Positions 2,932-53,281 of a DNA stretch of 53,281 nt are shown here, one piece after another; position 1 is the first letter of the stretch; each line of letters begins with the position of its first letter. Source of the stretch: a virus. Under the pieces are notes generated by a model, which was not told the DNA's origin, searched no databases, and worked only from the letters and a program-made list of their open reading frames with translations. The position numbers and the translations under genes are program-made. The stretch is from the IMG/VR virus record IMGVR_UViG_3300025133_000004, positions 1-53,281 of that record. One strand, given 5' to 3'.

Positions 2932-4701
2932 ATGAAAAAACAAATACATTTTATGTCAGGTGTGCCTCGCTCCGGTTCTACGGTACTGGCGGCTATACTT
3001 AACCAAAACAAACAGACTCATGTTTCTACAACGTCAGGGTTAGTATTTGCTTTAGACGGGTTAGCTAATACTTGGCACTCACAACAGCTATTAAATAATA
3101 CAGATAAAGATAAGACCAAGTTAGCTAAAACAATGAATGCTATAATTAATACGTTTTATGAAGATTATAAAAACCCTGTTATTATAGATAAAGGCAGAGG
3201 TTGGCCCATTCCTGTTATTATGCAGTCTATGAGCCAAGTATTAGGTAGACTACCTAAAATTGTAGCTACTGTTAGATCAATACCTGATTGTATGGCATCA
3301 TTTGTTAGAGTAGCTAAACCAGATAATCTTGATAAATTTATGGAATCTGGAATACTAAGTACTCATTTAAAAGCAGCATATTTAACTTTACAAACTGGTT
3401 ATGAGTTTGCACCTGAATGTTTTTGCATAGTTGAATATGAAGACCTTATAGCTAATCCAAAAGCTCAACTTAAACGCATCCATAAATTTTTGGAGTTGCC
3501 TGATTTTAATTATGACTTTACAGCGATTGATGGGACTAGCGTTCAGGAAGATGATGAAGAGCTACATCACTATGAAGGTATGCACAATATTCAGCCTGTG
3601 CTTGGAAAGCAGCACAACGAAGACCCCAAAGATGTACTAAAGCATTATTACAATTCGTTTTGTCAGCCTGAGTTTTGGCTTAAAAACCCTCGTACAACCC
3701 CTGAAATACATGACCTAGACCTTCAGTTAGCTGCTTCAAAAAGAGGCCACTTTGCAGAGGGTTGGCGGTTAAGTCAACAAATAGAAAAAAATGAGCCTAA
3801 TAATCATAGAGCTGCTTTTAATCGTGGATGGTATTTATTACGTCAAGGAGAAATTCAAAAGGGTTATCAGTTAATGGATAGAGGACGTTTAATAGGAGTA
3901 TTTGGTAATACTGTTACTTCACAATCACCTTGTTGGGACGGAAAATCAAAAGGTACAGTTTTATTATATTTAGAAGGTGGACTAGGCGATCAAATACATC
4001 AAGTACGATATGCTAAGTCTATTGCCGAAAAAGGTTGTAAAGTAATCGTATCTTGTTCTGGACAGCTTGCATCTTTATTTGTAGATGTTGAGGGCGTGAG
4101 TTCTGTTGTTCAACATGAGATGTGTCACGGGGTTTACCATGACTTTTTAGTACACGGAATGTCAGCCGTTGTTCCACTAGGATTAGAATTAAAAGACCTT
4201 TCTGGTATACCTTATATTACTAAACCTAAAAGTATTAGAGGTTTTAAAACCCGAATTGGTTTACGATGGCAAGGACAAACTGTATTTGAAAAAGAACATC
4301 AAAAGAAATTTCCTTATGATCTTTTATTTGATGCTGTAAAAGATGCAGATGCAGAGTTTATTTCTTTACAAAAAGATGAGGGTGTAGAAGATTGTCCATC
4401 GTGGGTTAAACAAGTTCCTTTAGATACTTGGGAAGATACACGACAAGCTACTGCCTCATGTGATTTGGTTATTTCATCTTGTACTTCAGTAAGCCATTTA
4501 GCAGCCGCAATGGGTGTAGAAACTTGGACAGTAATACCTGTTATGCCTTACTTCTTATATGCACAAGAAGGAGATACTTGTCCTTATTATGATTCAATGA
4601 AACTAATACGACAAAAAGAATTTGGTAATTGGGAAGATCCTTTTAATTTAATTAAAGAAAAACTTACAAAAAATAAACAAATATTACGGAGAATTGCATG
4701 A
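2932..4701 (+). CDS. sulfotransferase / TPR-like linker / GT9-like glycosyltransferase fusion protein
   Basis: N-terminus has GVPRSGST (5'-PSB loop), VRSIPDCMAS (3'-PB-like) and YEDLIANPKAQLKRIHKFLEL. C-terminus has WDGKSKGTVLLYLEGGLGDQIHQVRYAK, typical of heptosyltransferase-like GT9 domains. Confidence 0.7.
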   Translation: MKKQIHFMSGVPRSGSTVLAAILNQNKQTHVSTTSGLVFALDGLANTWHSQQLLNNTDKDKTKLAKTMNAIINTFYEDYKNPVIIDKGRGWPIPVIMQSMSQVLGRLPKIVATVRSIPDCMASFVRVAKPDNLDKFMESGILSTHLKAAYLTLQTGYEFAPECFCIVEYEDLIANPKAQLKRIHKFLELPDFNYDFTAIDGTSVQEDDEELHHYEGMHNIQPVLGKQHNEDPKDVLKHYYNSFCQPEFWLKNPRTTPEIHDLDLQLAASKRGHFAEGWRLSQQIEKNEPNNHRAAFNRGWYLLRQGEIQKGYQLMDRGRLIGVFGNTVTSQSPCWDGKSKGTVLLYLEGGLGDQIHQVRYAKSIAEKGCKVIVSCSGQLASLFVDVEGVSSVVQHEMCHGVYHDFLVHGMSAVVPLGLELKDLSGIPYITKPKSIRGFKTRIGLRWQGQTVFEKEHQKKFPYDLLFDAVKDADAEFISLQKDEGVEDCPSWVKQVPLDTWEDTRQATASCDLVISSCTSVSHLAAAMGVETWTVIPVMPYFLYAQEGDTCPYYDSMKLIRQKEFGNWEDPFNLIKEKLTKNKQILRRIA

Positions 4702-5972
4702 GCAAGGAGTGGCCGGGAGGAATTGTAAATAAAACTGCTCCTACTATTACTGCACCTACTGATGGAGAGGGAGGCAGTGCTTCTGGTGTGTGGTCATTAG
4801 ATGAAGTAATGGTTCATGAAAAAGCAGGTAATTGGCCTAAGCCGAATAAAAAAAGACAGTTATGGGGTTTTGGCCGCAATGCTAATGGACAATTAGGATT
4901 AGGTGCTACTGGTGGAGATGGTGAAACACAAGCTCATACTTCTCCTATGCAAATAGGTTCATTAACTGATTGGGCGCAAGTTGCTTTGGGTGGGGCACAT
5001 TCTATAGCAACAAAAACAGACGGTACATTATGGTCATGGGGTTATAATTCTACTGGTCAATTAGGACAAGATAACACTACTCAGCTTGTTTCCCCAAATC
5101 AAGTGGGTGCATTAACTACTTGGGGTTCTGATGTAGGACCATCAGGCGATGGTAATGCTCAAATATCTTGTGGAAATGGCACATCACATATGATTATGAA
5201 TGATGGTACATTGTGGAGTATGGGTAGAGGTAGTCAAGGTCAATTAGGTATGAATAATACTACTATTTATTCTTCACCCGTTCAGGTTGGATCATTAACT
5301 AATTGGCGAGAATTAGCTGTTGGTGGCGGTTACAAGTTTATGCACTCAATTAAAACTGATGGAACTTTATGGGCTTGGGGAAAACAAGACAATGGACAAC
5401 TGGGTGACGGCTCTACTACTGCTAGAAGTTCTCCAGTTCAAATTGGATCAGTAACAACTTGGGTAACTGTTGCTTGTGGTTATTCTCATACAATAGCAGT
5501 AAAAGAAGACGGTACTTTATGGGCAGTAGGTCACAACGATGATGGACAATTAGGAGATGGTTCTACTACTGATAGAAGTTCTTTAGTACAAATAGGTTCA
5601 CTTACTAATTGGAAATTTGTAGCGGCAGGAGATAGAAATAGTCTTGCCGTTAAAACTGATGGCACTATGTGGGCTTGGGGAAATAACGGTTACGGAGTAG
5701 TAGGTGATGGTTCTACCACTAATAGAAGTTCTCCAGTACAAATAGGTTCTTTAACAACTTGGAGAAAAGTATTCACGCGACACAGAAATTCAGGTGCGAT
5801 TAAATCAGACGGCACTTTGTGGGGTTGGGGTTATAACGATGAAGGAATATTAGGTATTGGTGCAGGTACTAATAGAAGCTCTCCAGTACAAGTAGGTACA
5901 GCAACTAACTGGCTTAGTAGTGGGCCTGGAGATTCACAAGGTATTCATTCATTATATTTGAGAGAAGGATAG
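4698..5972 (+). CDS. RCC1-repeat beta-propeller protein (paralogue 2)
   Basis: RCC1-type repeats (DGTLWAWGxxxxGQLGDGSTTxRSSPVQIG), ATGA overlap with the upstream ORF, and an N-terminal segment shared with 1696..2907. Confidence 0.8.
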   Translation: MSKEWPGGIVNKTAPTITAPTDGEGGSASGVWSLDEVMVHEKAGNWPKPNKKRQLWGFGRNANGQLGLGATGGDGETQAHTSPMQIGSLTDWAQVALGGAHSIATKTDGTLWSWGYNSTGQLGQDNTTQLVSPNQVGALTTWGSDVGPSGDGNAQISCGNGTSHMIMNDGTLWSMGRGSQGQLGMNNTTIYSSPVQVGSLTNWRELAVGGGYKFMHSIKTDGTLWAWGKQDNGQLGDGSTTARSSPVQIGSVTTWVTVACGYSHTIAVKEDGTLWAVGHNDDGQLGDGSTTDRSSLVQIGSLTNWKFVAAGDRNSLAVKTDGTMWAWGNNGYGVVGDGSTTNRSSPVQIGSLTTWRKVFTRHRNSGAIKSDGTLWGWGYNDEGILGIGAGTNRSSPVQVGTATNWLSSGPGDSQGIHSLYLREG

Positions 5973-11191: not shown

Positions 11192-12541
11192 ATGGGTTTC
11201 TTTAAAAAAGTATTTGGCGGTGTTGCTAAAACCTTTAGAAAAATAGGTAGGGGCATAAAGAAAGTTGTTGGTAAAATAGGCCAATTTATGAATAAAATAG
11301 GTATTGTCGGTCAAATAGCTATGGCTTTTATACTACCCGGAATAGGGAATATGTTAATGAATGGGATAGGTGGAATAGCTTCTAGTATGGTAACTAATAC
11401 TTTAGGGGGTATTGGTGGGGCTATAGTTAAAGGAGCAGGTCATGTAGTTAGTGCCGCTCATAAGTTTGTAACAGTTGGAAAAAATGCTTTTAATACTGTA
11501 ACTCAAGGAGTTACAAAGTTTGTAGGAGAGTTTACTAAAACTGCTTTAAATAAAATTCCGGGCGTTAATATTCAAAGTGCTTCTAAAAATTTCTTTGGTA
11601 CTGGTGGAGCTTGGGACACTGTTCAAAAAGATATAACTAAGAATTATAAAAATATTATGAACCCATTTAAATCTACTGTAAACATAAAAGAAGGAATGGA
11701 TATAAAAGATGTAGTAAACAGCACTGGAGTTTCTAAACAAAGAATTCAAGACATGAATATTGGTGTTGATTTAAATAATTTAAAAGTCGGAGAAAGTTTA
11801 AATTTTGATGCAGGAAGTATAGGCAAGCCTATGACGGGTGATCAAATTAAAGAACTTACTGGTGTAGATTTTGGTGGAACCACCCCTAAACCAGATTATC
11901 TTTCTGCTCAAGATGTTAGAAATATGACAGGTGTAGATTTTGGTGGAGGAACCGTATCACCTAGCGTTGCTCGCGCTCAAGCCGGAGCAGAGGCGTTTGG
12001 AATAACAGACCCCTTAACAATGGATCAATCAGGAGTTTTTGGCCCTCCTCCTGCTCCTCTTACTCCTACTGCTCCATATACGCAAGCCGAAATAGATAGT
12101 ATGAACTTAGGTTTTGATACTCGTAAGTATCAGACAAGTATACTATCTGCTCCTAATAATAATGTACCGCTTTCTTCTATTGTCCCTGATCCTGATCCCG
12201 GTGTAATGCAGCGTATGTGGACAGGAGCGAAAGGAGAGCTTGAAAATAGATATAGTTTAGATAAACCATTTACATCTGCATATCAAGCTGCTCAAGATAT
12301 AGCAACAGCACAAGCAGTAATTGAACCAGAAGTAGATTACGATACTTGGGGTTCTTATAGCGCTCCTATGTATCTTGCTTCAGGGGCACAAGATTATGAT
12401 GTTACAGTTCAATCTCCTCCAAGAAATTTCCAAGCTTATTCAAGTATGGGGCAGTATGGTTCAACCGCAAGAATATATGATACTATTTTAATGAATCCTG
12501 TATCTACTTGGTCAAGAGATTTATCGTCTAGATTTGCTTAA
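11192..12541 (+). CDS. virion-associated protein with a glycine-zipper N-terminus and a LysM-like segment
   Basis: N-terminus has IGGIASSMVTNTLGGIGGAIVKGAG. TVNIKEGMDIKDVVNSTGVSKQRIQDMNIGVDLNNLKVGESLNF fits the LysM pattern. (L/M)TGVDFGG is duplicated. Confidence 0.6.
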   Translation: MGFFKKVFGGVAKTFRKIGRGIKKVVGKIGQFMNKIGIVGQIAMAFILPGIGNMLMNGIGGIASSMVTNTLGGIGGAIVKGAGHVVSAAHKFVTVGKNAFNTVTQGVTKFVGEFTKTALNKIPGVNIQSASKNFFGTGGAWDTVQKDITKNYKNIMNPFKSTVNIKEGMDIKDVVNSTGVSKQRIQDMNIGVDLNNLKVGESLNFDAGSIGKPMTGDQIKELTGVDFGGTTPKPDYLSAQDVRNMTGVDFGGGTVSPSVARAQAGAEAFGITDPLTMDQSGVFGPPPAPLTPTAPYTQAEIDSMNLGFDTRKYQTSILSAPNNNVPLSSIVPDPDPGVMQRMWTGAKGELENRYSLDKPFTSAYQAAQDIATAQAVIEPEVDYDTWGSYSAPMYLASGAQDYDVTVQSPPRNFQAYSSMGQYGSTARIYDTILMNPVSTWSRDLSSRFA

Positions 12542-15441: not shown

Positions 15442-15963
15442 ATGTCACTTAGCGGATTAGACATTACTCTAGCAGAAGAAGATAAATTTGAAAACGATAC
15501 TTTAATTACTGTAGCTATAAAAAGTAAAGAAGGTTTTCTTAGGACTCCTGAATGGGATAATGCACAATGGACATGGGGATATGGAACAGAAGCACCTCTT
15601 CCAAAAGACCGAAATGCAGAAGTTCCTACAGATTTAACCATAACTAGAGAACAAGCTCAAGAAGAACTTCTTGGTTATTTAGATAGAGAAATAATAAATA
15701 AATTAAATACTTATTCAGAAAGAAATAATTATAATTGGAATGATACTCAAAAAGAAGGTCTTACAAGTTTCTTATATAATTTAGGTTTTGGCGCACTAAA
15801 TCAACTTACTGCTAATGGTACACGTACTGATGAAGAAATAGCAGAAAAGATGCTAGAATATAATAAAGAAAGAAATCCAGAAACAGGAGAACTTGAAGTA
15901 AGCAGAGGCTTAACAAAAAGAAGAATAGACGAAAGTGATTATTTTAGAAGAGGCATGAATTAG
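15442..15963 (+). CDS. GH24 (T4/lambda-type) lysozyme
   Basis: KEGFLRTPEWDNAQWTWGYGTE (catalytic Glu context) and GLTKRRIDESDYF (RRxxExxLF-like). AGGAAG lies upstream of the ATG. Confidence 0.75.
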   Translation: MSLSGLDITLAEEDKFENDTLITVAIKSKEGFLRTPEWDNAQWTWGYGTEAPLPKDRNAEVPTDLTITREQAQEELLGYLDREIINKLNTYSERNNYNWNDTQKEGLTSFLYNLGFGALNQLTANGTRTDEEIAEKMLEYNKERNPETGELEVSRGLTKRRIDESDYFRRGMN

Positions 15964-18900
15964 TGGGAATAAAAAAGAATACTGAAAATATCTGGGGTGT
16001 TTTAAATGCCGATAATATTATAGCGCCTGAAAAAACACAAATAGGATTAAGTGGGCCTTCTAGTTTTATTCAAAAAAATCATGCTGATTTAAGGAATGAT
16101 CCACGTTATCAAGCAGAAGCCGAAAAGTTTCTTAGTTACTTATCAGAACAAGAAGGGATGGCAGAAAAATTAACAGGTGGTGCAATATCTAACGATATTT
16201 TTGAAACACTTAGAGATGAAGAAGGCCGTTTACTTACAGTAATTGATAGAGCTAGAGTTTTAAGAGAGGCTCCTGAAGAAATTAAACAAACATATAGATA
16301 TCTTAGAGATAATTTTGAAGCTTCTAAAGCAGGTAGTTTTGGCGAAATGTTAAAAGCTACTTTTGATAGAGGTGTAGATATGTTTGCTGATCCTATTAAT
16401 TTAGCTTTTGCATTGGTAGCTCCGGGTTTAGGTAGTGCTGTTGCTAGGACTTCTACAGGCGCAGCAACTAGAGTTTTAACAAGTCAAGCAGGTAAACAAA
16501 ATGTTAAAAAGACTTTAAATAATATTGCAGCGGCTAATGCAGATTCTTTATCTCCAACAGTTACAGGCGTATCCGCAGCATTTGAAGGCGGTATTTGGAC
16601 AGGCGTAGAAAATGCTAATAGACAAGATATAAATATAACTACTGGATTACAAGATGCTTTTAGTGATGGGGACTTTGCCTTGTCTGTAGGATTAGGTATT
16701 GGGCTTGGAGGTAGTTTAGGTTATGGTGCAAGTAAATTATTTTCTAGACGTACAACTAATGTAGCTGAAACTGGACAAAGTACTACCCCCACAGTATTGC
16801 CTCCTCCAAATTCTTCAATTAATTCAAGTGCTAGTAGTACTGCTGAACAAGAAGCAGAAACGCTTGTATCAGGATTATTTAATAAAGTTGAATTAAAAAC
16901 TGATAGAAGAGGTAAACAATATTACGATAGGCAAGGAAATCCTGAAGTAAATTTAACATTATTAAAAAATTTAAAAAAAGAATTAGGCAATCAATACGAT
17001 GATGTAAGAATAGCTAATATAATACTGGCAATTAAAGATACTATTTTTAAAAAACTTACACCTGACGAAGTAAAGCAAGGTTTAAACTTTGCTACTAAAC
17101 AAAGAACTTTACAAATTAATGATATTGATCCTGAAGTATTAAAATTGTTTGAACAATATGGATTAAAAAATTCTGAAATTCAAACAGCTATAACTTTTGT
17201 TAAAAATACTTATATGAAAGATGCAGAAAAAACTGCAACAAAAGTTTTAAAAGGTCAAAAAGTAAAAGTAACTCAAACTATAGATTTAGACGATGCACAA
17301 ATAGGCAGTCTTGCCGACCAACTAGCTGCTAAAACTGGTGGAGGACAAAGAACTTCTGAAATTTTAACAGATGCTATACAAGAAGCTAATGCTACCAGAG
17401 GTATAACTAATATAGCTAGAGAAAGTTCTATACTAAGAAAAGTTTTAGATAAAACTTCTGACTTTAATGCTAGATATTTAACAGGAAAAGTTACTGGTAT
17501 TTTTAATAAGTATCAGGGTCTTAGCCCTAATGTTATAAATTCTTTTCAAGAAAGAATTGTATCTGCTGTATCTAATTCTTGGAAAAGAGGAGAGTCTATA
17601 GTAAGAGATACAAATGATTATGGTAATGTATTTAATATAGAATTTGGTAGACTTGGAATGGCTTGGAAAGCTATTTATGATCCTATTGCTGAAACAACTC
17701 TTAAAGGTGGATATAAAGAAGAAATAGATACTTTACTTTCTAATGCTATTAGAACTAATGATATAAAAACTTTAGCTAGAGAAACACAACATTTAGGTAA
17801 AGATGTAAGAAAATCTTTATTTAATATAGTTAAATTTGGTAGAAGTCAACTAAAAGAAATGGGTGATGAATCACAAGGAAAAGGATTAGTAAATAATTTA
17901 ATAGATAATTACCTACCTAGATTATGGAAAAGATCAGAAATAGAAAATAATAAAGAAGATTTTATTAGTCTTCTTGAAAAGAATGTTAATTGGAAACAAC
18001 ACGTAGATTTAGAAGAAACTATTGATGCCAATGGAAATATAATTAGACGGCAGCTTACTAATAAAGAAAAAGCAGAAAAAGTATGGGAAGAATTATTAGA
18101 TATTAAATTTCAATTTGGTAATGATTCTGGTACAGGCATGAATAGTTTTTTTGCTAGAAGACAATTAGAATTAAAAGATGAAACTGCCTTTACTAAATAT
18201 TTAGATAACGATTTAAATAATGTAATGCTTAGTTATCATCGTTCTACTGCTAAAGCTATAGCAAAAGATACCGTATTTGGTGTAAGAAATATAGAAGATT
18301 TTAATACTACTTGGTTTCCGGCTTTAGAAAAAGAAATGAGAGCTAATGGAGCTACAACAGAATTAATAAACCAAGCAAAGAAAGACATGACTGATGTATA
18401 TCAAAATGTTACTGGAGAAGGTTTAGATAGATATAAGGGGTGGAAAGGCACGGCAGCAGATTCATATATGTTATTTAATAGAATGGCTTTATTACCCTTA
18501 TCAACACTATCAAGTCTTTCAGAAATATTTATTAACATTTCTAAAGCAGGTGTTAAAACATCTTTCGCAGGATACAGAGATGCTATATTTAGTGGTTCTA
18601 AAAAAATGTTTGATGATTCTTTAAACGGTCTTCAAAAATCTTTTAATATGACTAGTAAAGAAGCAATGCACGAACTCAATCAAATGGGTACGGCTTTAGA
18701 TCAAGCTTTTGCTGACTACGCAGATAGATTAGGAGGTGATGCACTATCTAGTCCTAGAATGAGAAATGTTAGTAATAAATTTTTTAGGTTTACACTTTTA
18801 GACCAATGGACTAAAGGAGTTCAAACAGCTTCATATATTATTGGAAAAAGATTAATAGCAGAAAATTTAGAAAGCATTGCTTCACATATGCCTTTAATAC

Positions 18901-21900
18901 AAACAGGTAAAATATCTAGAAGAGTACAAAGACAAATAGATGAACTAGCTGATCTTGGTATAAATTATAATGAAGGTGTATCTTGGCTAAATAAAGGAGC
19001 TAATATAGAAGACGATTTTTACAGAAAACTTAAAGAAGGAGCAAATACATATACTAATGAAGTTATTTTAAATCCTAGCGCACAGTCAGGTATAAAACCT
19101 ATGTATATGTCAAATCCAAAAACTGCAATCCTCGGTCAACTATTAGGTTACCCCGCAGCTTTTACTAATACAGTTATGAAAAATATGGCTAGACAAATAG
19201 CTAGAAATCCTGAGACTGCTTTAACTCAACATATTCCTGCTGTAGGAATTATGACAGCAGTAGCTATGTTTACTAATGCTGCTAGAACTCAAGGCGAATC
19301 TTTGGAGGGTAAACCCCATGAAGTAATTGGTGGTGCTTTGGCTAGAGCAGGATTTAATGGTTTACCTGCTGATATGTTTACAAGAGGTAGAACGGCTGCT
19401 GAAATTTATCAAAGTCCTACTGCTTATATGACAGGGTTTGGACCGCTTTGGGGTGATGCTTATAAACTGGGAGTTAGTGCAGATGTATTTTCTATACTAG
19501 GACAAAAAATTCCGGGCTACGGAGCTTTTAATGCAATTTTTGGTGCTACTGAAGCCACTGAAGATTGGCCTGATAAGTATAGAGAAATGTTACGGGCCGG
19601 AGATACTTTTTTTCAAAAATCTACTACTCCAGAACAAGATGTAGTTTCTAGAAAAAACTGGGAAAAAGGCGGTGAAGTTTATAATGTACCACAAGTTACT
19701 GAAGAACCTGATGAACGTATAGATAGAATGACAGGACTTCCATATGATGTACAAGCGGGAGGAGCTTTTATAGACGAAGAAGATCGCCAAGGTTTTGCAT
19801 TAGGAACAATAGTTTCAAAGGCGGCTCCGGTTTTAAAATCTAAACTATCAGAAGCTCTTGGTGAATTAGCAGATAAAGGTGAAAATATTCCTATTAATAG
19901 GTTAGTAAAAAGATTACAAAACAGAGGTGTTCGGAAAGATGAAATAGAGGCGGCAGGTATTGATGAAGACGGTAATGCATGGCATTCACCAACACAAGAA
20001 TCCGAAGAAGCAGCCGCTCAAATTAGGACTGTAGTTACTAGATCAGGTAATCTAGCTTATACTCCTGATGGTTTAAGAGCTATAGATAAAGCTAGAATGG
20101 ATAAACCTTTAATTGATTCTAACTTTGTAACTGCAAAAGAAACTTTATTAGAACATAATACAGCATTAGAAAAATTAGAATTTGATGCTGAGCTTGCCGA
20201 ACGAGGAATTCCTTATGATGGCAAACAGCTTGAGGCAGATTTAATAATAAATGAAGAAGGCGCATTTTTTGACGAATATACTCCCCTAGATGTTAATGAT
20301 TTAACATTAGAAACTAGAATATTTCGTGATCCTAGAGGCAAGCAAATAGGTGCTGAATCTAAACATTTTGTTCTTAATTTGCCAAAGGGTAGTGCGGCTA
20401 TTAAAGCGGGATATAAAGACGATCCTTATAGTTATCATGTAAGATTTGATGAGATTGATCCCGCTCTTAGAGTTTTTGAAATGCAAAGTGATTTAGCAAT
20501 AGGTAGAAAAACTAGGTTGGCCTTATATGATATTGTGTTTGAGCCAACGAAGTGGAAGAAAAAATCTAATGATAATGTGTATAATGTATTGTTAGATTCA
20601 TTTAATGTTAATAAAAAAGATATTAAATTTTCAAAAGAACAAGGCAAACAACTAGGTATAGATGTAAAAAACTTAAATGCTTTATATAAAGAAGCTGCAA
20701 GTATGCGTAAAAACATTAAAGAATTTGCTTTGGAAGATGAAAAGCTTTATCACTTAGATACATTATTCGTGCAATATGACTTAAATTTAGAAAGTTTTGT
20801 AAAAGAAAGTGATCTTATAGCCGATTTAAAATCTTATATAGAAAAAACAAAATATTTACCCCAACGTGGAATAAATAAAGATATAAAAAATTATATATCA
20901 AAATTTGAGTCCCAAAATATTTTAAAAAATAAAATAACAGATAAAGTACAAGATACTCTTAATGCAATTAATATATCAAAAGTTATACCTGAAATAGATG
21001 TTTCTCAAAATATAATAAATAGAATGATAGCTGAAACAAAAGAAAGAGGGCTTCCCGAAATTAGTTTTTTGATTGGTAGAGATACTCCAGAAAGTAGAAA
21101 ATATATGGGTGTCCCGGCTTATAAAGAATGGAAGGTTAAGCCTAATAGATCAAAAGGTCATATGCAAAGAAGTTATCATATTCAAGAATATTATGAAGAT
21201 ACAGTAGCTCCACAAGTACAAAAAATTGCAAAAAAAATAGGAGCTACTACTCGTTGGGACGATAAAGGATACTTAACTATAGTATTACCTGAAAAAGAAT
21301 TTACTTTGCCTATATATAAAAATGAAGGTGGATATATTTCTCGTCAAAAATATATGGCAGGTACGTTAGCTAGAACAGGTGCTAATATAATAAAAGGTTT
21401 ATGGCACGGTTCTCCACATAGTGTTCCTACTTTAAAAGCTAGTAAATCTATTGATTCTAATGCTCTTCAATTAGGCAGAGGAGTAGCTGCAACAAAAGAT
21501 AAAAAAATAGCTGAGTCATATCTTGATGCAACACCCAACCGTTCTGTAGGTTTATCAGAAAAAGCTCTTTTAGAAGAAAGAACTGCTAGAGGTTCTTCTA
21601 CTCCTACTTTATATGAATTAGAAGCACATATAAATGAGGATGAAATAATTAGAACAGGTACAAAGTTTGCCGATCAACCGACTCCTGTGCAGACTAGAAT
21701 AGATGCTATAGCAAAAGACTATGATATTCAGTTGTCAGATAAAGACAAAGATAGTAAAAGAATATTTTATATTTTAAAAAGAAACTTAGAAGATAAAGAT
21801 TTAAAAGCAGAAGATATTTTTAAAAACTATGGAATTAAAGCTGCAAAAAGAGATTTAAGGGAAACTTCTTTAGAAGGATTAAGTCTTGGAGGAAATGAAG

Positions 21901-23354
21901 AATATTCTTTTTATGATGATAGTGTACTAGAAATTGTAAGTAAAAACATTAAAACAGGAGGGCCAGAAAATCTTATACAAGGAGGTACAGCTTTAATAAA
22001 GAAAGCAAAAGAAGCGGGAATGGATACTGAGCGCATAGTGTATCACGCTGCTGGTGAGCGATGGGCTACAGACGGAATAACTTTTGATGAAAAATATTTT
22101 CTAGATAATTACATGGATGATATTAGTCCCGAAAATCATATGGTCTATTTAGGTACTGATGCAGATATATCTTCTTTTTATGCACAAAAAAAATGGAACA
22201 GTAAAGCTGAAGCAGCCGACAGAGCAGCAGGAAGAAAAATTAAAAAAGACTACTGGACAACCCCCGAAATACTTCCTATGTTTTTAAAGGGACCGGGATT
22301 AAAATTAAAAATAGATAAATGGGCACCCTCTACTTATAAATCTCCAGACAACAAGGCTATGCCGTGGGGAAAATGGTTTATACAGGATGCTATGGATCAA
22401 TTAAATATTAAAACCCCTGTAACTAAAAAGTCTGATATGATAAAAGAAATTTGGAAGGAAGCAAAAAAACAAGGCTATGGATATATAGAATTTATTAATG
22501 TTGAAGATGTTAGCAAAGCTGCTGATATAACTCCCCAAACTCAGATCATACCTTTAGGCCCAGATAAAGTAAAATCAATTTATGCAAACTATAATCCAGA
22601 TGCTACTAAAGAAGACCTAATGCGAAATCTATTTTCAGCCACAGGCGGCTCAATCAGAAAGCAATACAAAGACGGTGGAATTCTTAAAGGCGGTTTAGGA
22701 AACAGAATTGTTAGAAGTTTAAGATTTTTACTTAATACAAAAGATGCTATAAACTATTATAAAGAAGGCTATAGACAAGAAGCAATAGAAGCAGGAGCTA
22801 GAGCAGTTGGAATAGGTGCAAGAGAACAACGTCTTAATGAAAGAGATGCAGCTAAAGCTATTAATGATGCAGTAGCAGAAGGAATACTTAAAGAAGAACA
22901 CGCTGTACCAGTAGATGATTATGGGTTTACTAAAGGAAATGTTGACGAACTTTTTAATGCGGTCAACCACGGTCTTTTATCTTTCAGATATGGTACTAAT
23001 CCTGCTATGAGAGGGCTTCTTCAATTAAAAGAAGGTGAAAAATTTGGACAAGCGGCAGAAAATCCAATAGATAGTTCTGTAGATTCTTTTAATAATTCAA
23101 GAGGTTTTTATTTAGAACAACAAGGACTAACTGAATCCGCAGCTTTACAAGAAATGATTAGAAGTAAACAAAGAACAGATTTAAAATTAAATCTAGGCTT
23201 ACCTCTAGTGCGAGGGCAAGATTTTATTTTTAATTCAGAAGATTTAAAAGCCGTAGGAACACAAGAAACATTAGGCCCATTATATACTGGTAGGATTGAA
23301 CGCAATAAAGGCGGTAAATTACTAGGCAGCTTACATAGGAGCAACTGTAAATGA
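15963..23354 (+). CDS. giant virion-associated protein (2463 aa), candidate polyvalent ejected protein
   Basis: Single uninterrupted ORF with a GTG start overlapping the lysozyme stop (TAGTG). Glycine-zipper hydrophobic segments near the N-terminus. Two ART-PolyVal-like segments (LWHGSP...GRGVAATKDKKIAESY...LYELEAHI and VYHAAG...VYLGTDADISSFYA...MFLKGPGLKL). Confidence 0.8.
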   Translation: MGIKKNTENIWGVLNADNIIAPEKTQIGLSGPSSFIQKNHADLRNDPRYQAEAEKFLSYLSEQEGMAEKLTGGAISNDIFETLRDEEGRLLTVIDRARVLREAPEEIKQTYRYLRDNFEASKAGSFGEMLKATFDRGVDMFADPINLAFALVAPGLGSAVARTSTGAATRVLTSQAGKQNVKKTLNNIAAANADSLSPTVTGVSAAFEGGIWTGVENANRQDINITTGLQDAFSDGDFALSVGLGIGLGGSLGYGASKLFSRRTTNVAETGQSTTPTVLPPPNSSINSSASSTAEQEAETLVSGLFNKVELKTDRRGKQYYDRQGNPEVNLTLLKNLKKELGNQYDDVRIANIILAIKDTIFKKLTPDEVKQGLNFATKQRTLQINDIDPEVLKLFEQYGLKNSEIQTAITFVKNTYMKDAEKTATKVLKGQKVKVTQTIDLDDAQIGSLADQLAAKTGGGQRTSEILTDAIQEANATRGITNIARESSILRKVLDKTSDFNARYLTGKVTGIFNKYQGLSPNVINSFQERIVSAVSNSWKRGESIVRDTNDYGNVFNIEFGRLGMAWKAIYDPIAETTLKGGYKEEIDTLLSNAIRTNDIKTLARETQHLGKDVRKSLFNIVKFGRSQLKEMGDESQGKGLVNNLIDNYLPRLWKRSEIENNKEDFISLLEKNVNWKQHVDLEETIDANGNIIRRQLTNKEKAEKVWEELLDIKFQFGNDSGTGMNSFFARRQLELKDETAFTKYLDNDLNNVMLSYHRSTAKAIAKDTVFGVRNIEDFNTTWFPALEKEMRANGATTELINQAKKDMTDVYQNVTGEGLDRYKGWKGTAADSYMLFNRMALLPLSTLSSLSEIFINISKAGVKTSFAGYRDAIFSGSKKMFDDSLNGLQKSFNMTSKEAMHELNQMGTALDQAFADYADRLGGDALSSPRMRNVSNKFFRFTLLDQWTKGVQTASYIIGKRLIAENLESIASHMPLIQTGKISRRVQRQIDELADLGINYNEGVSWLNKGANIEDDFYRKLKEGANTYTNEVILNPSAQSGIKPMYMSNPKTAILGQLLGYPAAFTNTVMKNMARQIARNPETALTQHIPAVGIMTAVAMFTNAARTQGESLEGKPHEVIGGALARAGFNGLPADMFTRGRTAAEIYQSPTAYMTGFGPLWGDAYKLGVSADVFSILGQKIPGYGAFNAIFGATEATEDWPDKYREMLRAGDTFFQKSTTPEQDVVSRKNWEKGGEVYNVPQVTEEPDERIDRMTGLPYDVQAGGAFIDEEDRQGFALGTIVSKAAPVLKSKLSEALGELADKGENIPINRLVKRLQNRGVRKDEIEAAGIDEDGNAWHSPTQESEEAAAQIRTVVTRSGNLAYTPDGLRAIDKARMDKPLIDSNFVTAKETLLEHNTALEKLEFDAELAERGIPYDGKQLEADLIINEEGAFFDEYTPLDVNDLTLETRIFRDPRGKQIGAESKHFVLNLPKGSAAIKAGYKDDPYSYHVRFDEIDPALRVFEMQSDLAIGRKTRLALYDIVFEPTKWKKKSNDNVYNVLLDSFNVNKKDIKFSKEQGKQLGIDVKNLNALYKEAASMRKNIKEFALEDEKLYHLDTLFVQYDLNLESFVKESDLIADLKSYIEKTKYLPQRGINKDIKNYISKFESQNILKNKITDKVQDTLNAINISKVIPEIDVSQNIINRMIAETKERGLPEISFLIGRDTPESRKYMGVPAYKEWKVKPNRSKGHMQRSYHIQEYYEDTVAPQVQKIAKKIGATTRWDDKGYLTIVLPEKEFTLPIYKNEGGYISRQKYMAGTLARTGANIIKGLWHGSPHSVPTLKASKSIDSNALQLGRGVAATKDKKIAESYLDATPNRSVGLSEKALLEERTARGSSTPTLYELEAHINEDEIIRTGTKFADQPTPVQTRIDAIAKDYDIQLSDKDKDSKRIFYILKRNLEDKDLKAEDIFKNYGIKAAKRDLRETSLEGLSLGGNEEYSFYDDSVLEIVSKNIKTGGPENLIQGGTALIKKAKEAGMDTERIVYHAAGERWATDGITFDEKYFLDNYMDDISPENHMVYLGTDADISSFYAQKKWNSKAEAADRAAGRKIKKDYWTTPEILPMFLKGPGLKLKIDKWAPSTYKSPDNKAMPWGKWFIQDAMDQLNIKTPVTKKSDMIKEIWKEAKKQGYGYIEFINVEDVSKAADITPQTQIIPLGPDKVKSIYANYNPDATKEDLMRNLFSATGGSIRKQYKDGGILKGGLGNRIVRSLRFLLNTKDAINYYKEGYRQEAIEAGARAVGIGAREQRLNERDAAKAINDAVAEGILKEEHAVPVDDYGFTKGNVDELFNAVNHGLLSFRYGTNPAMRGLLQLKEGEKFGQAAENPIDSSVDSFNNSRGFYLEQQGLTESAALQEMIRSKQRTDLKLNLGLPLVRGQDFIFNSEDLKAVGTQETLGPLYTGRIERNKGGKLLGSLHRSNCK

Positions 23355-24649
23355 AAACATTACTTGGTTTAATAATAGCTACTGCACTACTGGTATCAGC
23401 TAGTAAAGTATATTCAAATGAACCTACTTATGTAGATGATGTAGCTTCTATTATTAATAACAACTGTGTTGTCTGTCACCGCGAAGGCGGTATAGGCCCA
23501 ATGCAGTTTGAAAACTACGAACAGGTTCGCCCGTGGAGTCCTTTGATTCAGCTTAAAGTAGCTAACAGAGAAATGCCGCCCTATGCTTATGATGAAGGCA
23601 TTGGCATACAGGAATTACATGGTGATTGGAGGCTCTCTCAGGCCGATATAGACACGATAGTAGAGTGGGTTAATACAGGATCAGAGTACGGAGATACTGA
23701 CGTTGTAGTGCAGCCTCCGAGCCTCTCAGACCCCGATCAGTGGAACTTCTACGAAAACTTTGGAGAGCCTACGTTGGTTATACCATCTACTCCAATAGAT
23801 ATTCCGGCTACAGGAAACGATCTCTGGCACAAACATAATGTAGCCAGTGGACTAACTGAGGACAGGTGCATTAAAGCCATCCAAGTTAAGCCAAGAGGAG
23901 AGGCTAAGAGTGTGGTTCACCACGCTAACAGTACTGTTACTTTAGAAGGCGAGAGGTACGGTATGCTCACTGAATACGCTATGGGTAAGTGGGGTGAAAT
24001 AGTACCAGAGGGGGTGTGTAGAACCATACCTGCTAACGCAGAGATAGCTTGGGACATTCATATGTTCCCCGGAGGTCTTGGAGCTATAGCCCCCGGAACT
24101 ATTATTAAAGATAATGTAGTAGAGATAGGGCTGTGGTTGTATTCTCCAGAGGAATCCCAAGAACTTGCTTACGAACAAGACCTGAGACTATACAGGATTA
24201 GCGATCAAGCTGATATTGTTATCCCGCCCAATGGTTATTCTATGACACAAGGCTTTCACTCCTTTGATCACCCAGTTCGTATAGACTCATGGCAACCACA
24301 TGGACATTTAAGAATGAATGCAGCAAGCTTTGAGATATTCTACCCCGATACTGGGAGAACAGAGCAGATCAGTCAGGTATCTAACTGGAGTGCAACGTGG
24401 CATCACAGTCATTTGTATGATCCAGACTATGCCCCACTACTACCAACAGGAGCAGTGTTAGTTTTAAAACAATGGTATGACAACACAGCAAACAACCCTA
24501 ACAATCCTGATCCTGATATGTGGGTTGTAGGAGGTAGTAGGACAGGGGATGAGATGACTCACGCATGGATAGCAGTAACACATCTTGATGAAGAGAAGTA
24601 TCAAGAACTTATAACTGAGAGAAACAACAAGAGGTTAGTAGCTCAATGA
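23351..24649 (+). CDS. secreted cytochrome c domain fused to a PHM/DBH-like copper monooxygenase-like domain
   Basis: Signal peptide MKTLLGLIIATALLVSASKVYS. CVVCH at aa 39-43 with REMPPY. His/Met pattern HH(190-191), H237, HGH(317-319), M402 as in type II copper monooxygenases. ATGA overlap with the giant ORF. Confidence 0.65.
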   Translation: MKTLLGLIIATALLVSASKVYSNEPTYVDDVASIINNNCVVCHREGGIGPMQFENYEQVRPWSPLIQLKVANREMPPYAYDEGIGIQELHGDWRLSQADIDTIVEWVNTGSEYGDTDVVVQPPSLSDPDQWNFYENFGEPTLVIPSTPIDIPATGNDLWHKHNVASGLTEDRCIKAIQVKPRGEAKSVVHHANSTVTLEGERYGMLTEYAMGKWGEIVPEGVCRTIPANAEIAWDIHMFPGGLGAIAPGTIIKDNVVEIGLWLYSPEESQELAYEQDLRLYRISDQADIVIPPNGYSMTQGFHSFDHPVRIDSWQPHGHLRMNAASFEIFYPDTGRTEQISQVSNWSATWHHSHLYDPDYAPLLPTGAVLVLKQWYDNTANNPNNPDPDMWVVGGSRTGDEMTHAWIAVTHLDEEKYQELITERNNKRLVAQ

Positions 24650-24831
24650 AACATTTAATACTTACAGCTTTACTACTGACAGGCTGTAGCAACTTCGGAG
24701 CGCCTAGTGGAATGTCCTTACACTTACAAGAGTACCCTCAATTTAACTGGATTGATCAAGATATTTTTATGTTGAATGTTAGGACTTGTAGAAGCTTAGA
24801 CTACTGCGCTGCGGAACAACTATTTAATTAA
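24646..24831 (+). CDS. small lipoprotein (61 aa)
   Basis: MKHLILTALLLTGCSN has a lipobox (LTGC). ATGA overlap with the upstream ORF. Confidence 0.6.
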   Translation: MKHLILTALLLTGCSNFGAPSGMSLHLQEYPQFNWIDQDIFMLNVRTCRSLDYCAAEQLFN

Positions 24832-24847
24832 TATAGAAGGTGAATAT

Positions 24848-25036
24848 ATGTTAGCTTTATATACAGAAGAACAATTAGGTGCAGCGTATCAAGTATATGC
24901 GCGGGTACACGCCTCAAAAGAAATAGAGATAGTAGACTTTGAAACATACAGAAGTATATTTGAATATCAATATATGGCTATGACTAAAGCTGATGAAATT
25001 TTTGACGGCACATTTGACACAACGATAGAGCATTAA
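24848..25036 (+). CDS. hypothetical protein (62 aa), last gene of the rightward arm
   Basis: Track ORF with GAAGGTG upstream of the ATG. Confidence 0.5.
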   Translation: MLALYTEEQLGAAYQVYARVHASKEIEIVDFETYRSIFEYQYMAMTKADEIFDGTFDTTIEH

Positions 25037-52260: not shown

Positions 52261-53281
52261 ATGGGTACAAGTTATGTAAGACAAAGCTCAATGGCAGATG
52301 GAGATACGATAACTGCTGCTTTATTTAATGATGAATTTAATAGACTTCTAACTGCTTTTTCATATGCTTCTAGTAGTACTACAGGTCATCAACACGATGG
52401 TACAGCCGCAGAAGGCGGTAATATACATACAATAGGTGATCAAGATTTTTTAAATAAAATTGTAGCTGATAGCACAAACAACCGTTGGGGTTTCTTTGTA
52501 GAAGTTTCTAGCTCTGCTGTAGAACAAATTCGTATTCAAGACGGAGCTATCGTACCTGTTACAGATAATGATATTGATTTAGGCACAAGCTCCTTAGAAT
52601 TTAAAGATGCTTACTTTGATGGCACAGTAACAACAGATGCTCTGGTTGCAGATACAGCAGATATTAATGGTGGCTCAGTAGATGGAGCAACGCTAGGAAC
52701 AAATAGTGCAATTACTCAAGCAGTTATAGATAATGTAAATATAAATGGTACAACAATAGGACATACAGATGATACTGATTTAATTACACTTGCTGATGGT
52801 GTTGTAACAATAGCGGGTGAACTAGACGCAACTACTTTAGATATTTCAGGTAATGCAGATATTGATGGAACTTTAGAAGCAGATGCTTATACGGTAGATG
52901 GAACAGCCTTAAATGAATATATAGCAGATACAGTAGGAGCTATGGTTGGCTCTAATACAGAGACAAATATTACAGTTACCTATGAAGACGGAGATAATAC
53001 TCTAGATTTTGTAATAGGTACTCTCAACCAAGATACTACAGGTACAGCAGATAATTTTACAGTATCAGCTAATAACTCTACAGACGAGACAGTTTATCCA
53101 ATCTTTGTAGATGGTGCTACTGGAAGTCAAGGAGCAGAAAGCGACACAGGCTTAACATATAATCCTTCTAGTGGTCTTCTGACAATTTCAGGAGAACTAG
53201 ATGCAGGATCACTTGATATTTCAGGTAATGCCGATATAGATGGTACACTTGAAGCAGATGCAATTACAGTTGATGGTACAG
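52261..53281 (+). CDS. tail fibre protein, 5' part (continues at base 1 of the window)
   Basis: ATG at 52261 two nt after the upstream stop, and an open frame to the window end (MGTSYVRQSSMADGDTITAALFNDEFNRLL...). Not in the track because no stop is reached. Confidence 0.75.
   Translation, partial: MGTSYVRQSSMADGDTITAALFNDEFNRLLTAFSYASSSTTGHQHDGTAAEGGNIHTIGDQDFLNKIVADSTNNRWGFFVEVSSSAVEQIRIQDGAIVPVTDNDIDLGTSSLEFKDAYFDGTVTTDALVADTADINGGSVDGATLGTNSAITQAVIDNVNINGTTIGHTDDTDLITLADGVVTIAGELDATTLDISGNADIDGTLEADAYTVDGTALNEYIADTVGAMVGSNTETNITVTYEDGDNTLDFVIGTLNQDTTGTADNFTVSANNSTDETVYPIFVDGATGSQGAESDTGLTYNPSSGLLTISGELDAGSLDISGNADIDGTLEADAITVDGT
52837..53281 (+). repeat. 375-nt (125-aa) tandem duplication inside the fibre gene; unit 2 starts at 53211 and runs across the junction
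   Basis: LDISGNADIDGTLEADA(Y/I)TVDGTALNEYIADTVGAMVGSNTE...DGDNTLDF..GTLNQDTTGTA occurs twice in tandem. The nucleotide copies are diverged. Confidence 0.8.
53212..53280. repeat. terminal redundancy: identical to bases 1-69
   Basis: Read directly at both ends. Confidence 0.9.

Follow-up and report, generated by a model that had tools for sequence, protein, structure and literature searches.

A phage cassette encoding a predicted exported cytochrome c/copper monooxygenase fusion and a small lipoprotein

The IMG/VR virus record IMGVR_UViG_3300025133_000004 (positions 1 to 53,281; the window, by which we mean the whole 53,281-nucleotide stretch of DNA analyzed) is a phage genome that carries a pair of overlapping genes encoding a 432-amino-acid (aa) enzyme, here called P0, and a 61-aa lipoprotein, P1. 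The overall best explanation of our observations, at a probability of roughly 60%, is that P0 is an exported, cytochrome-c-wired copper monooxygenase that phages carry as an auxiliary cassette. Its predicted fold and proposed ligand set are those of PHM (EC 1.14.17.3) and DBH (EC 1.14.17.1), which together with tyramine beta-monooxygenase make up the non-coupled binuclear ('type II, ascorbate-dependent') copper monooxygenases. The features of the P0 gene are listed below, where CuH denotes the electron-transfer copper and CuM the oxygen-activating copper.

23351..24649 (+): P0 gene, predicted exported cytochrome c/PHM-DBH-type copper monooxygenase fusion, 432 aa (open reading frame, family profile, AlphaFold2 model and Foldseek)
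23351..23416 (+): predicted Sec signal peptide, aa 1-22, MKTLLGLIIATALLVSASKVYS (inspection and hydropathy; cleavage after VSA17 or VYS22)
23417..23695 (+): predicted mono-haem c-type cytochrome domain, approximately aa 23-115 (sub-threshold Pfam matches, matches of relatives, helical model)
23465..23479 (+): CVVCH haem c attachment motif, C39/C42/H43 (aa 39-43; read from the sequence)
23573..23581 (+): M75-P76-P77, within REMPPY (aa 73-78; invariant in the family)
23768..24586 (+): PHM/DBH-like two-domain beta-sandwich catalytic core, approximately aa 140-412 (model, Foldseek and profile alignment)
23918..23923 (+): H190-H191, proposed CuH ligands (aligned on the HH of DBH and PHM)
24059..24061 (+): H237, proposed third CuH ligand (aligned on the H of 'lqvHY' in PHM and DBH; invariant)
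24299..24307 (+): H317-G-H319, proposed CuM ligands (aligned on the HtH of DBH and PHM)
24554..24556 (+): M402, in G-D-E-M, proposed CuM methionine ligand (conservation)

A preliminary description of this DNA had read in the 432-aa open reading frame a CVVCH motif followed by REMPPY and WRLSQADIDTIVEWVNTG, together with a set of potential copper ligands (HH at 190-191, H237, H317-x-H319 and M402), and all of these elements are present where it placed them, WRLSQADIDTIVEWVNTG occupying aa 93-110. The cleavable-looking signal peptide that it noted is likewise borne out by inspection and hydropathy: the N-terminus has the typical n-, h- and c-regions, with a basic n-region (MK), a hydrophobic core of approximately 2.8 on the Kyte-Doolittle scale over residues 4-15 and then V-S-A and V-Y-S, and in the AlphaFold2 model residues 16-21 have low predicted local distance difference test (pLDDT) values and are followed by a folded domain. 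C39, C42 and H43 of the CVVCH motif are invariant across all 262 distinct homologues examined. In an alignment of 31 diverse relatives, which extends to 25-30% identity, the same three residues are invariant together with M75, P76, P77, H190, H237, H317 and H319, and both H191 and M402 are at least 90% conserved, which goes far beyond what chance would give. On sequence grounds, M75 is probably the sixth (distal) ligand of the haem; a distal methionine and an all-helical fold of approximately 80-100 residues are typical of class I c-type cytochromes. All 12 haem and copper residues are retained in each of the 84 distinct phage copies (84/84), with H317 and H319 invariant among them, and M402, in the context G-x-x-x-D-E-M, is kept in all 84 phage copies and in 175 of 176 cellular ones. 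The ratio of nonsynonymous to synonymous substitution rates (dN/dS) is 0.056-0.078 for the P0 of the window against other phage copies, and the phage copies are under strong purifying selection. At least 2702 homologues of P0 were found, and the family has 8867 representatives at 50% clustering.

When P0 was compared with Pfam, cytochrome c models matched aa 29-109 below threshold (PF13442, 18.9 bits against a cut-off of 27; PF00034, 18.9 bits against a cut-off of 21.3), and there was no match to PF01082 or PF03712 at E<=1. Searches with P0 gave nothing in NCBIfam, nothing meaningful in the PHROGs, and no match in a single-sequence search of the PDB. The 31 diverse relatives were also scanned singly; the cytochrome c model was matched by 28 of them (best E=4.8e-6), Cu2_monoox_C (PF03712) by 13 (best E=3.6e-6) and Cu2_monooxygen (PF01082) by three. 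The Pfam comparison suggested in the preliminary description thus failed for P0 itself but succeeded for its relatives. Since P0 is sub-threshold and its relatives match PF03712 and PF01082, we regard it as a divergent branch of the superfamily and not as a canonical Pfam member.

A family profile of 31 sequences (A1), searched against the PDB, retrieved human DBH (4zel, E=1.1e-7) and rat PHM (E approximately 8e-6), in alignments that span residues 177-431 of DBH and 22-207 of PHM. These superpose the HH, H and HxH of the family on the HH, H and HxH of DBH (4zel) and PHM (1opm, 1yjk), the aligned PHM histidines being the CuH ligands H107/H108/H172 and the CuM ligands H242/H244; the alignment ends before M402. 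The AlphaFold2 model of P0, computed from 60 sequences, has a pLDDT of 83.7 and a predicted template modelling score (pTM) of 0.82. It is helical over residues 29-108 and has beta strands over residues 142-263 and 274-411, which form two beta-sandwich domains. When the model was compared with the PDB using Foldseek, the top 31 matches were all structures of DBH or PHM (4zel, 1phm and others; E 8e-12 to 6e-9), with approximately 300 aligned columns and a template modelling (TM) score of approximately 0.6 on the PHM length, and the next match reached only E=1.7e-5. The predicted structure therefore has the catalytic-core topology of PHM and DBH, two tandem beta-sandwich (jelly-roll) domains, in keeping with the PHM/DBH resemblance proposed in the preliminary description. 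Foldseek against BFVD returned generic jelly-rolls only (TM<=0.29).

In enzymes of the PHM/DBH class, two copper ions lie approximately 11 Å apart across a solvent cleft, and C-H bonds are hydroxylated in a reaction that requires O2 and a reductant. We propose, from the conserved positions, that the His and Met residues of P0 converge into two copper sites, with M402 as the equivalent of the CuM methionine on the basis of its conservation and of the superposition of the whole domain. The copper-monooxygenase ligand pattern put forward earlier is supported for the five histidines by profile alignment to DBH and PHM, and M402 is a candidate ligand.

The location of the P0 gene shows that it belongs to a phage. 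The window encodes a large terminase subunit, a portal protein, a major capsid protein, DNA polymerase I, a primase-helicase, a Cas4-type exonuclease and a class I ribonucleotide reductase (RNR), and we assign it to the HMO-2011-type podoviruses from its capsid protein, which shares 60% identity with its counterpart in Pelagibacter phage HTVC115P and 44% with the one in Puniceispirillum phage HMO-2011. The cassette forms the 3′-terminal part of the rightward late operon and stands between a giant gene and the convergent RNR genes; it is joined to the former as follows.

15963..23354 (+): giant virion-associated protein gene, 2463 aa, last backbone gene of the rightward late operon (PHROG matches)
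23351..23354 (+): ATGA stop/start overlap of the 2463-aa gene with the enzyme gene (read from the sequence)
24646..24649 (+): ATGA stop/start overlap of the enzyme gene with the lipoprotein gene (-4 overlap kept in most relatives)

Both of these overlaps, to which the preliminary description had drawn attention, are read directly in the sequence, and its view of the 2463-aa neighbour as a virion gene agrees with matches of that protein to the giant virion-associated lysin family phrog_7348 (E=6e-120) and to phrog_6958, 'virion structural protein'; the C-terminus of the protein found no match among 50,697 GenBank phages. The order giant gene, enzyme, lipoprotein, RNR is repeated in approximately 30 independent related IMG/VR contigs at 82-96% identity. 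At the same junction HTVC115P carries an Hsp20 gene and small hypothetical open reading frames in place of the cassette, which indicates that the position after the giant gene is a variable cargo slot. The enzyme gene has a GC content of 44% and a GC content at third codon positions (GC3) of 0.37, compared with a GC3 of 0.14 in the giant gene and 0.29 in the capsid gene, and is compositionally foreign to the phage. A scan for promoters and terminators around the cassette gave no signal above shuffled expectation, so that a separate transcription unit cannot be claimed; expression with the late genes would follow from the position in the operon.

Relatives of P0 are carried by at least 199 IMG/VR contigs, the identical protein occurring on 18 contigs of up to 54 kb, and clustering of the flanking genes distinguished at least nine phage backbones with the cassette. 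It always lies between the giant gene and RNR in HMO-2011-type podoviruses, between ThyX and PhoH in a jumbo phage of approximately 335 kb (with MazG, a ferredoxin and a 2-oxoglutarate (2OG) oxygenase also among its neighbours), and between the clamp-loader genes gp44 and gp62 in T4-like myoviruses, and there are several further backgrounds of 50-340 kb. A tblastn search of P0 against 50,697 GenBank phages, cultured relatives included, gave no match. The gene thus has cellular homologues, is flanked by phage genes, is dispensable for the backbone, as cultured relatives lack it, and is under purifying selection, which are the marks of an auxiliary metabolic gene; P0 is most likely such a gene, encoding a putative periplasmic, cytochrome-fed hydroxylase.

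The composition of the cassette varies. We found the enzyme alone, the enzyme with P1, the enzyme with two copies of P1, the enzyme with a second, distant paralogue, and the enzyme followed by P1 and then the paralogue; phages of the same backbone may lack P1 or have a second enzyme paralogue in its place. Three loci (L053, L080 and L082) have the enzyme, a stand-alone cytochrome c and then the paralogue. The stand-alone cytochrome c of L082 (L082:7266-7634) is a 122-aa protein with CAACH, an N-terminal hydrophobic segment and a match to PF00034 of 32 bits, above the cut-off, and the start codon of its gene overlaps the stop codon of the first paralogue gene. In one backbone without P1, a different 68-aa lipoprotein (P38; lipobox P-I-G-C) is encoded directly upstream of the enzyme (L039:5763-5969), and this 68-aa lipoprotein is also present in L023, L024, L032, L033, L035, L036 and L038. 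In the T4-like loci L187-L192, a 206-aa AhpC/TSA redoxin gene lies two genes upstream of the cassette position, whether the enzyme is present or not; its occurrence there and the AhpC/TSA fusions of distant relatives (see below) may be a coincidence. The cassette is also found on GenBank PBPT01000016.1 (335,231 bp; L090/L001), which is labelled as a 'Candidatus Neomarinimicrobiota/Marinimicrobia bacterium' metagenome-assembled genome (MAG). Around the cassette this contig encodes ThyX, PhoH, MazG, a GH108 lysozyme, a clamp loader, fragments of DNA polymerase III alpha, DnaJ/ClpB and a 1800-aa YHYH protein, it is related to the contigs L002, L085 and L086 and has near-identical counterparts of 219-340 kb in IMG/VR, and it is probably a jumbo phage genome assigned to a MAG by a binning error. 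Marinimicrobia were accordingly rejected as the donor of the gene, the contig being jumbo-phage-like.

The second gene of the cassette has the following features.

24646..24831 (+): P1 gene, 61-aa small lipoprotein (open reading frame, ATGA-coupled to the enzyme gene)
24646..24687 (+): lipoprotein signal peptide with lipobox L-T-G-C (aa 11-14), Cys14 predicted to be lipidated (regular-expression match)
24736..24828 (+): conserved C-terminal knob, aa 31-61, helix-turn-helix (alignments and AlphaFold2 model)

P1 begins with a hydrophobic segment, as judged by hydropathy, and the lipobox LTGC recognized in the preliminary description is found at aa 11-14, where it fits the pattern [LVI][ASTVI][GAS]C; among 51 homologues, Cys14 never varies and Gly13 is kept in at least 90%. 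In the AlphaFold2 model a disordered tether (aa 15-30) leads to the knob (aa 31-61; pLDDT 76-95), which has helices at residues 38-50 and 56-59 and carries the motif P-x-F/W-N-W ... N-V-R-x-C48-R-x4-C54-A-A-E-x-L-F. The invariant C48 and C54 flank the turn between the helices, and a C48-C54 disulfide in the knob is probable from the conserved cysteines and the model. The dN/dS of P1 is 0.05-0.27.

A hidden Markov model search identified P1 as the gene immediately following that of the enzyme in 44 of the viral loci examined, among them the window; the two genes usually share the -4 overlap, and some viral loci have two tandem copies of P1; the viral loci were chosen for carrying the enzyme, so that the linkage frequencies of enzyme and lipoprotein are biased. 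When viral contigs were searched with P1 itself, the enzyme was upstream in 18 of the 18 loci recovered, in a search (a five-sequence version) that reaches close relatives only. P1 is absent from all 77 genuinely cellular loci (77/77), and its family, which comprises 101 clusters among 5.8 billion proteins, has carrier contigs of no more than 350 kb and none at the Mb scale; P1 is thus known from phage-sized contigs only. The T4-like locus L189 has the enzyme and P1, and the T4-like loci L187 and L191 have an intact P1 alone at the same position. P1 is therefore linked to the enzyme strongly but not obligately, and the coupling of the two described earlier holds frequently across backbones, though not at enzyme-only and lipoprotein-only loci.

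Several other observations concern P1. At L195:1501-1734 and L196:1939-2172 we found a 77-aa chimeric open reading frame in which the signal peptide and CVVCH region of the enzyme are joined to the C-terminal motif of P1, directly downstream of a SegE-type GIY-YIG homing endonuclease gene; this chimera is what a deletion within the cassette left behind in a T4-like phage. P1 matched the PHROGs of Cor (E=0.022) and of an Rz-like spanin (E=0.062) weakly, in the signal-peptide region only and without significance. P1 was considered as a substrate of PHM type and rejected, since no P1 C-terminus ends in glycine and P1 is not universal. A 'PqqA' Pfam tag on a 37-aa gene call in L001 is probably spurious, as the call overlaps the 3′ part of the second P1 copy there (11412-11633). 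A family here called P2, a 154-aa coiled-coil protein with a transmembrane segment at its extreme C-terminus (phrog_32327), occurs at L009:6528-6992 and in 33 other viral loci; it is frequently encoded after the cassette when the backbone is that of a podovirus or a jumbo phage, and is absent from the window and from the cellular loci.

The nearest cellular relatives, which the preliminary description had proposed as a guide to the donor lineage, proved to be marine Pseudomonadales, Pseudohongiellaceae and SAR86. When GTDB genomes were scanned, 77 cellular loci with 65-75% identity were returned. Every one of them belongs to marine Gammaproteobacteria (Pseudohongiella/Pseudohongiellaceae, other Pseudomonadales and SAR86), and several lie on complete chromosomes of 3.5-6.6 Mb. 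The cellular genes form arrays of 2-5 paralogues, with 176 copies in the 77 loci. Of these 176, 29 have substitutions at the CuM histidines (H317R; H319N or H319S) but retain the methionine, the haem motif and the histidines of the CuH site; such array members may lack catalytic activity or bind metal differently. A neighbour-joining tree, which has no support values, placed the P0 of the window in a phage clade of 64 tips with three gammaproteobacterial sequences nested inside, and gave the second phage paralogue a clade of its own, whose sister is another cellular paralogue. The separate positions of the two phage paralogues in this tree suggest at least two captures from cells.

The gene neighbourhoods of the cellular loci differ from those of the phages. 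In 57 of the 77 loci a secreted 311-aa protein, F1, with a C-terminal ...GDQCCW..., is encoded directly upstream of the enzyme gene or genes (for example L091:4752-5687(+), with homologues at L088:9356-10309 and L089:9329-10201). F1 had no match in Pfam or NCBIfam and was found in no phage locus examined. On Mb-scale contigs, enzyme homologues of 32-34% identity are followed by an F1 homologue (E=2e-18 and 4e-13), and F1 is therefore an ancient partner of the enzyme. A GMC flavoprotein dehydrogenase also recurs, accompanied by its small subunit, which resembles gluconate-2-dehydrogenase subunit 3, but by no cytochrome subunit. Other recurrent neighbours are two transport proteins (an MFS transporter and an amino-acid permease), a beta-lactamase-family hydrolase, a cupin, a 2OG-Fe(II) oxygenase and a STAND/TPR regulator. 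Secreted NHL-repeat propellers are present in approximately 14 of the 77 loci (for example L118:83-1174(-), L100:4020-5264(+) and L092:11723-12676(+)); they match rat PAL (3fvz), one with E=2e-29 over a single colinear stretch of approximately 170 residues and another with 6e-13. PAL is the lyase partner of PHM, and the sequence matches hint at a bacterial two-enzyme pathway of PHM and PAL-like type at the cellular loci. Among more distant relatives, one homologue adjoins a quinohaemoprotein pyrroloquinoline quinone (PQQ) dehydrogenase, and many are fused to AhpC/TSA redoxin domains.

From these data we infer a mechanism; that metal is bound, which way electrons run, that the reaction is a hydroxylation, what P1 does and how the phage benefits are all conditional in it. 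The 432-aa protein would be exported by Sec to the host periplasm, where the cytochrome c maturation system of the host would attach haem at C39/C42. Electrons would enter the haem c (axial ligands H43 and M75) singly from the periplasmic c-type cytochrome or dehydrogenase pool of the host, pass to the CuH-equivalent copper held by H190, H191 and H237, and from there to the catalytic CuM-equivalent copper held by H317, H319 and M402, at which O2 activation would lead to C-H hydroxylation of a periplasmic substrate, as in PHM and DBH. The haem domain would thus supply the reductant, as ascorbate does in the animal enzymes. Such a relay fits the stand-alone cytochrome c of some cassettes, the GMC dehydrogenase that lacks a cytochrome and the quinohaemoprotein neighbour; the AhpC/TSA redoxin fusions were also counted in its favour. 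The gene was presumably captured from marine Gammaproteobacteria (Pseudomonadales, Pseudohongiellaceae or SAR86-like), and phages would keep it as a mobile auxiliary, non-structural cassette in the cargo slot with which the late operon ends. P1 would be a phage-specific accessory in which a flexible tether links a lipid anchor to a helical knob stapled by a disulfide; it most likely docks or localizes the enzyme, or a partner of the enzyme, at a membrane. Our best guess at the outcome is that during infection the phage boosts or adds oxidative periplasmic processing of peptide-like or N-acylglycine-like dissolved organic matter.

The PAL-like neighbours of the cellular genes suggest chemistry near that of PHM, alpha-hydroxylation followed by cleavage by a lyase, which is a lead and not a result. 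In its most specific form, which we consider a long shot, the cassette would be the first viral and the first prokaryotic PHM-type system, a cytochrome-c-wired alpha-hydroxylase that marine phages of diverse lineages would place in the host periplasm and that would oxidatively cleave glycine-terminated peptides or N-acylglycines of dissolved organic matter to amides and glyoxylate, with the phage-invented P1 replacing F1 as the membrane dock. If so, it would act alone or with PAL-like lyases of the host and would redirect the flow of carbon and nitrogen in infected cells, and the fusion would show in what way enzymes of the PHM class are reduced without ascorbate.

Several observations speak against P0 as a cytochrome-fed copper monooxygenase in an auxiliary cassette. 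P0 itself falls below the Pfam gathering thresholds for both the cytochrome c and the copper-monooxygenase domains; a second profile (A2; 60 sequences, dominated by one subfamily) found nothing in the PDB; and a C-terminal sub-profile meant to align M402 with the methionine of PHM gave only noise and retrieved neither PHM nor DBH. P1 is separable from the enzyme, as enzyme-only cassettes and lipoprotein-only T4-like phages both occur. The capsid relatives of the window infect SAR11 and SAR116, whereas the nearest cellular homologues of the enzyme are gammaproteobacterial, so that the host may lack the surrounding pathway, and because F1 is missing from phages, the phage enzyme may work differently from the cellular one. 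The context of the phage copy, finally, indicates no substrate.

Among the other explanations, the best supported, though an unlikely one, is that the cassette serves envelope remodelling or superinfection exclusion. A membrane-held oxidase would in this case modify a receptor, a peptidoglycan stem peptide or a lipoprotein and thereby block secondary infection or condition the envelope. A moron-like placement, in the variable cargo slot that closes the late operon, would suit such a role, as would the presence of a lipoprotein, small phage lipoproteins being classic exclusion factors; the P1 family is restricted to phages and persists without the enzyme, and in another backbone the enzyme is directly preceded by the other small lipoprotein, P38. 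The similarity of P1 to Cor, however, is the non-significant signal-peptide match noted above, the cellular homologues occur in catabolic-looking clusters with transporters, dehydrogenases and PAL-like lyases and not among envelope genes, and the cassette of jumbo phages lies amid metabolic cargo (ThyX, PhoH, MazG, ferredoxin and 2OG oxygenase).

Less likely again is a role in handling O2, reactive oxygen species or copper, in which P0 would be a periplasmic cytochrome-c-dependent oxidase or a peroxidase-like sink passing electrons to O2 or H2O2, or else a copper buffer, with no organic substrate. PHM-type enzymes can turn over uncoupled. The fusion of distant relatives to peroxiredoxin-type AhpC/TSA domains, the AhpC/TSA gene two genes upstream in T4-like cassette loci and the lack of any conserved substrate-specific neighbour in phages are all consistent with this idea. 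However, the 2-5 diverged paralogues of each cellular locus are typical of substrate diversification and not of a housekeeping oxidase, the PAL-like lyases nearby point to a hydroxylated organic product, and the strictly kept, Met-containing CuM triad matches monooxygenase chemistry.

We give little credence to the view that P1 is an ordinary o-spanin-like lysis lipoprotein that merely adjoins the enzyme, which would then be solitary cargo and form no functional unit with it. With approximately 60 aa, a lipobox and conserved cysteines, P1 does resemble Rz1-type o-spanins, and it has the weak Rz-like match; lysin-type genes are near (the one for the giant lysin-like protein and, in relatives, one for a 122-aa endolysin/peptidase), P1 stands alone in some T4-like phages, and the coiled-coil membrane protein P2 often follows it. 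On the other hand, no i-spanin, with its N-terminal transmembrane segment and periplasmic coiled coil, is adjacent in the window, where P2 is absent, and the anchor of P2 is C-terminal rather than N-terminal. P1 keeps the same -4 ATGA overlap with the enzyme across unrelated backbones and lies amid metabolic cargo in jumbo phages; in T4-like phages it is found between clamp-loader genes and not in a lysis cassette; and phages of the same backbone may lack P1 or have the second paralogue instead, which is unexpected for an essential lysis gene. Mis-joining of a bacterial gene to phage DNA during assembly or binning, which the higher GC of the gene relative to the rest of the phage and the one homologue contig labelled as a Marinimicrobia MAG might suggest, is effectively excluded by the recurrence of the identical protein on 18 contigs and of the gene order in approximately 30 independent ones, by the ATGA overlaps that tie the enzyme gene to phage genes on both sides, and by the phage-like content of the 'Marinimicrobia' contig itself.

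A few further features of the window lie outside the cassette. The lipoprotein gene is followed by a 62-aa open reading frame (24848-25036), which has a weak DUF7700 match and no hydrophobic segment; it is kept in 31 related HMO-2011-type contigs irrespective of the composition of the cassette and is on these grounds assigned to the backbone and not to the cassette. Two genes of approximately 400 aa (1696-2907 and 4698-5972) consist of 150-nucleotide tandem units coding for RCC1-like repeats, have a PHROG match to 'regulator of chromosome condensation' / tail protein, and probably encode tail-fibre or receptor-binding propellers. Near the ends of the window there are imperfect direct repeats of approximately 76% (3-216 versus 52840-53053; 52797-52906 versus 53172-53281) and no exact terminal repeat. 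A tRNA scan of the window found none.

An exported cytochrome-c-wired copper monooxygenase of this kind would be of interest in several respects. Animals use PHM/DBH-type enzymes to make amidated peptide hormones and noradrenaline, and the copper chemistry and long-range electron transfer of these enzymes are still debated; a natural PHM-type enzyme with a built-in haem c electron entry, in a bacterial family with thousands of representatives, would offer an experimental handle on both the mechanism and the bacterial function. The gene is abundant marine phage cargo, distributed over podoviruses, T4-like myoviruses and jumbo phages and under strong purifying selection, and because it would equip the periplasm of infected cells with a haem-copper oxygenase, it is a candidate for a new viral route by which the oxidation of dissolved organic matter is altered. 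P1 and the modular variants with a second paralogue or a stand-alone cytochrome c provide testable clues to partners, and the cellular clusters, with their paralogue arrays, F1, GMC dehydrogenase and PAL-like propeller, are a starting point for a substrate search.

We found no viral PHM/DBH-type enzyme in INPHARED, BFVD, the PHROGs or the searchable literature, and no description of bacterial or phage cytochrome c-PHM fusions in the literature searched, work on HMO-2011-type phages and on PAM evolution included. Compared with PHM and DBH themselves, P0 shares the predicted two-domain beta-sandwich fold and the ligand order HH...H followed by HxH...M, of which the five histidines are profile-aligned. 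It differs in being only 12-14% identical and below the Pfam thresholds, in its prokaryotic, predicted periplasmic and phage-encoded setting, and in having an N-terminal cytochrome c, the presumed point of electron entry, in place of the external ascorbate of PHM or the DOMON domain of DBH. The bacterial cytochrome c/PHM-like proteins are P0's own family and have the same invariant residues, under database names such as 'mono/diheme cytochrome c family protein', 'cytochrome c' and 'hypothetical'. Many of these have an N-terminal AhpC/TSA redoxin and some a PQQ-propeller or EF-hand extension, whereas P0 has no redoxin domain. The setting of the cellular copies, with paralogue arrays, F1, GMC dehydrogenase, MFS transporter, cupin and PAL-like propellers, is entirely missing around the phage copy, where P1 is found instead.

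A haem domain that feeds single electrons to a copper monooxygenase also recalls the relay between cellobiose dehydrogenase and lytic polysaccharide monooxygenase (LPMO) in fungi, and a GMC neighbour is present in the cellular clusters. However, the fungal relay uses a haem b cytochrome and a mononuclear histidine-brace copper, compared with haem c and a PHM-type two-copper core here, the folds are unrelated, and the haem domain of P0 is fused to the monooxygenase and not to the dehydrogenase, so that the resemblance would be one of functional analogy only. As an exported copper or redox protein of cellular origin under selection, P0 is similar to other viral redox gene products, including the petE plastocyanin, ferredoxin and PTOX of cyanophages, the fusolin of entomopoxviruses and the GP37 of baculoviruses. 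Fusolin and GP37 are viral copper monooxygenases of LPMO type. Unlike any of these, P0 is predicted to join covalent haem c and copper in one polypeptide. P1, in turn, is like Rz1-type o-spanins and Cor/Llp in its approximately 60 aa, lipobox signal peptide, conserved cysteines and phage specificity, and unlike them in its distinctive knob motif and in its coupling to an oxidoreductase gene instead of an i-spanin or a receptor-related locus. The predicted fold and the ligand set are thus those of a known enzyme class, and what is new is the covalent fusion to cytochrome c, the prokaryotic periplasmic setting, the wide spread among phages and the phage-only lipoprotein.

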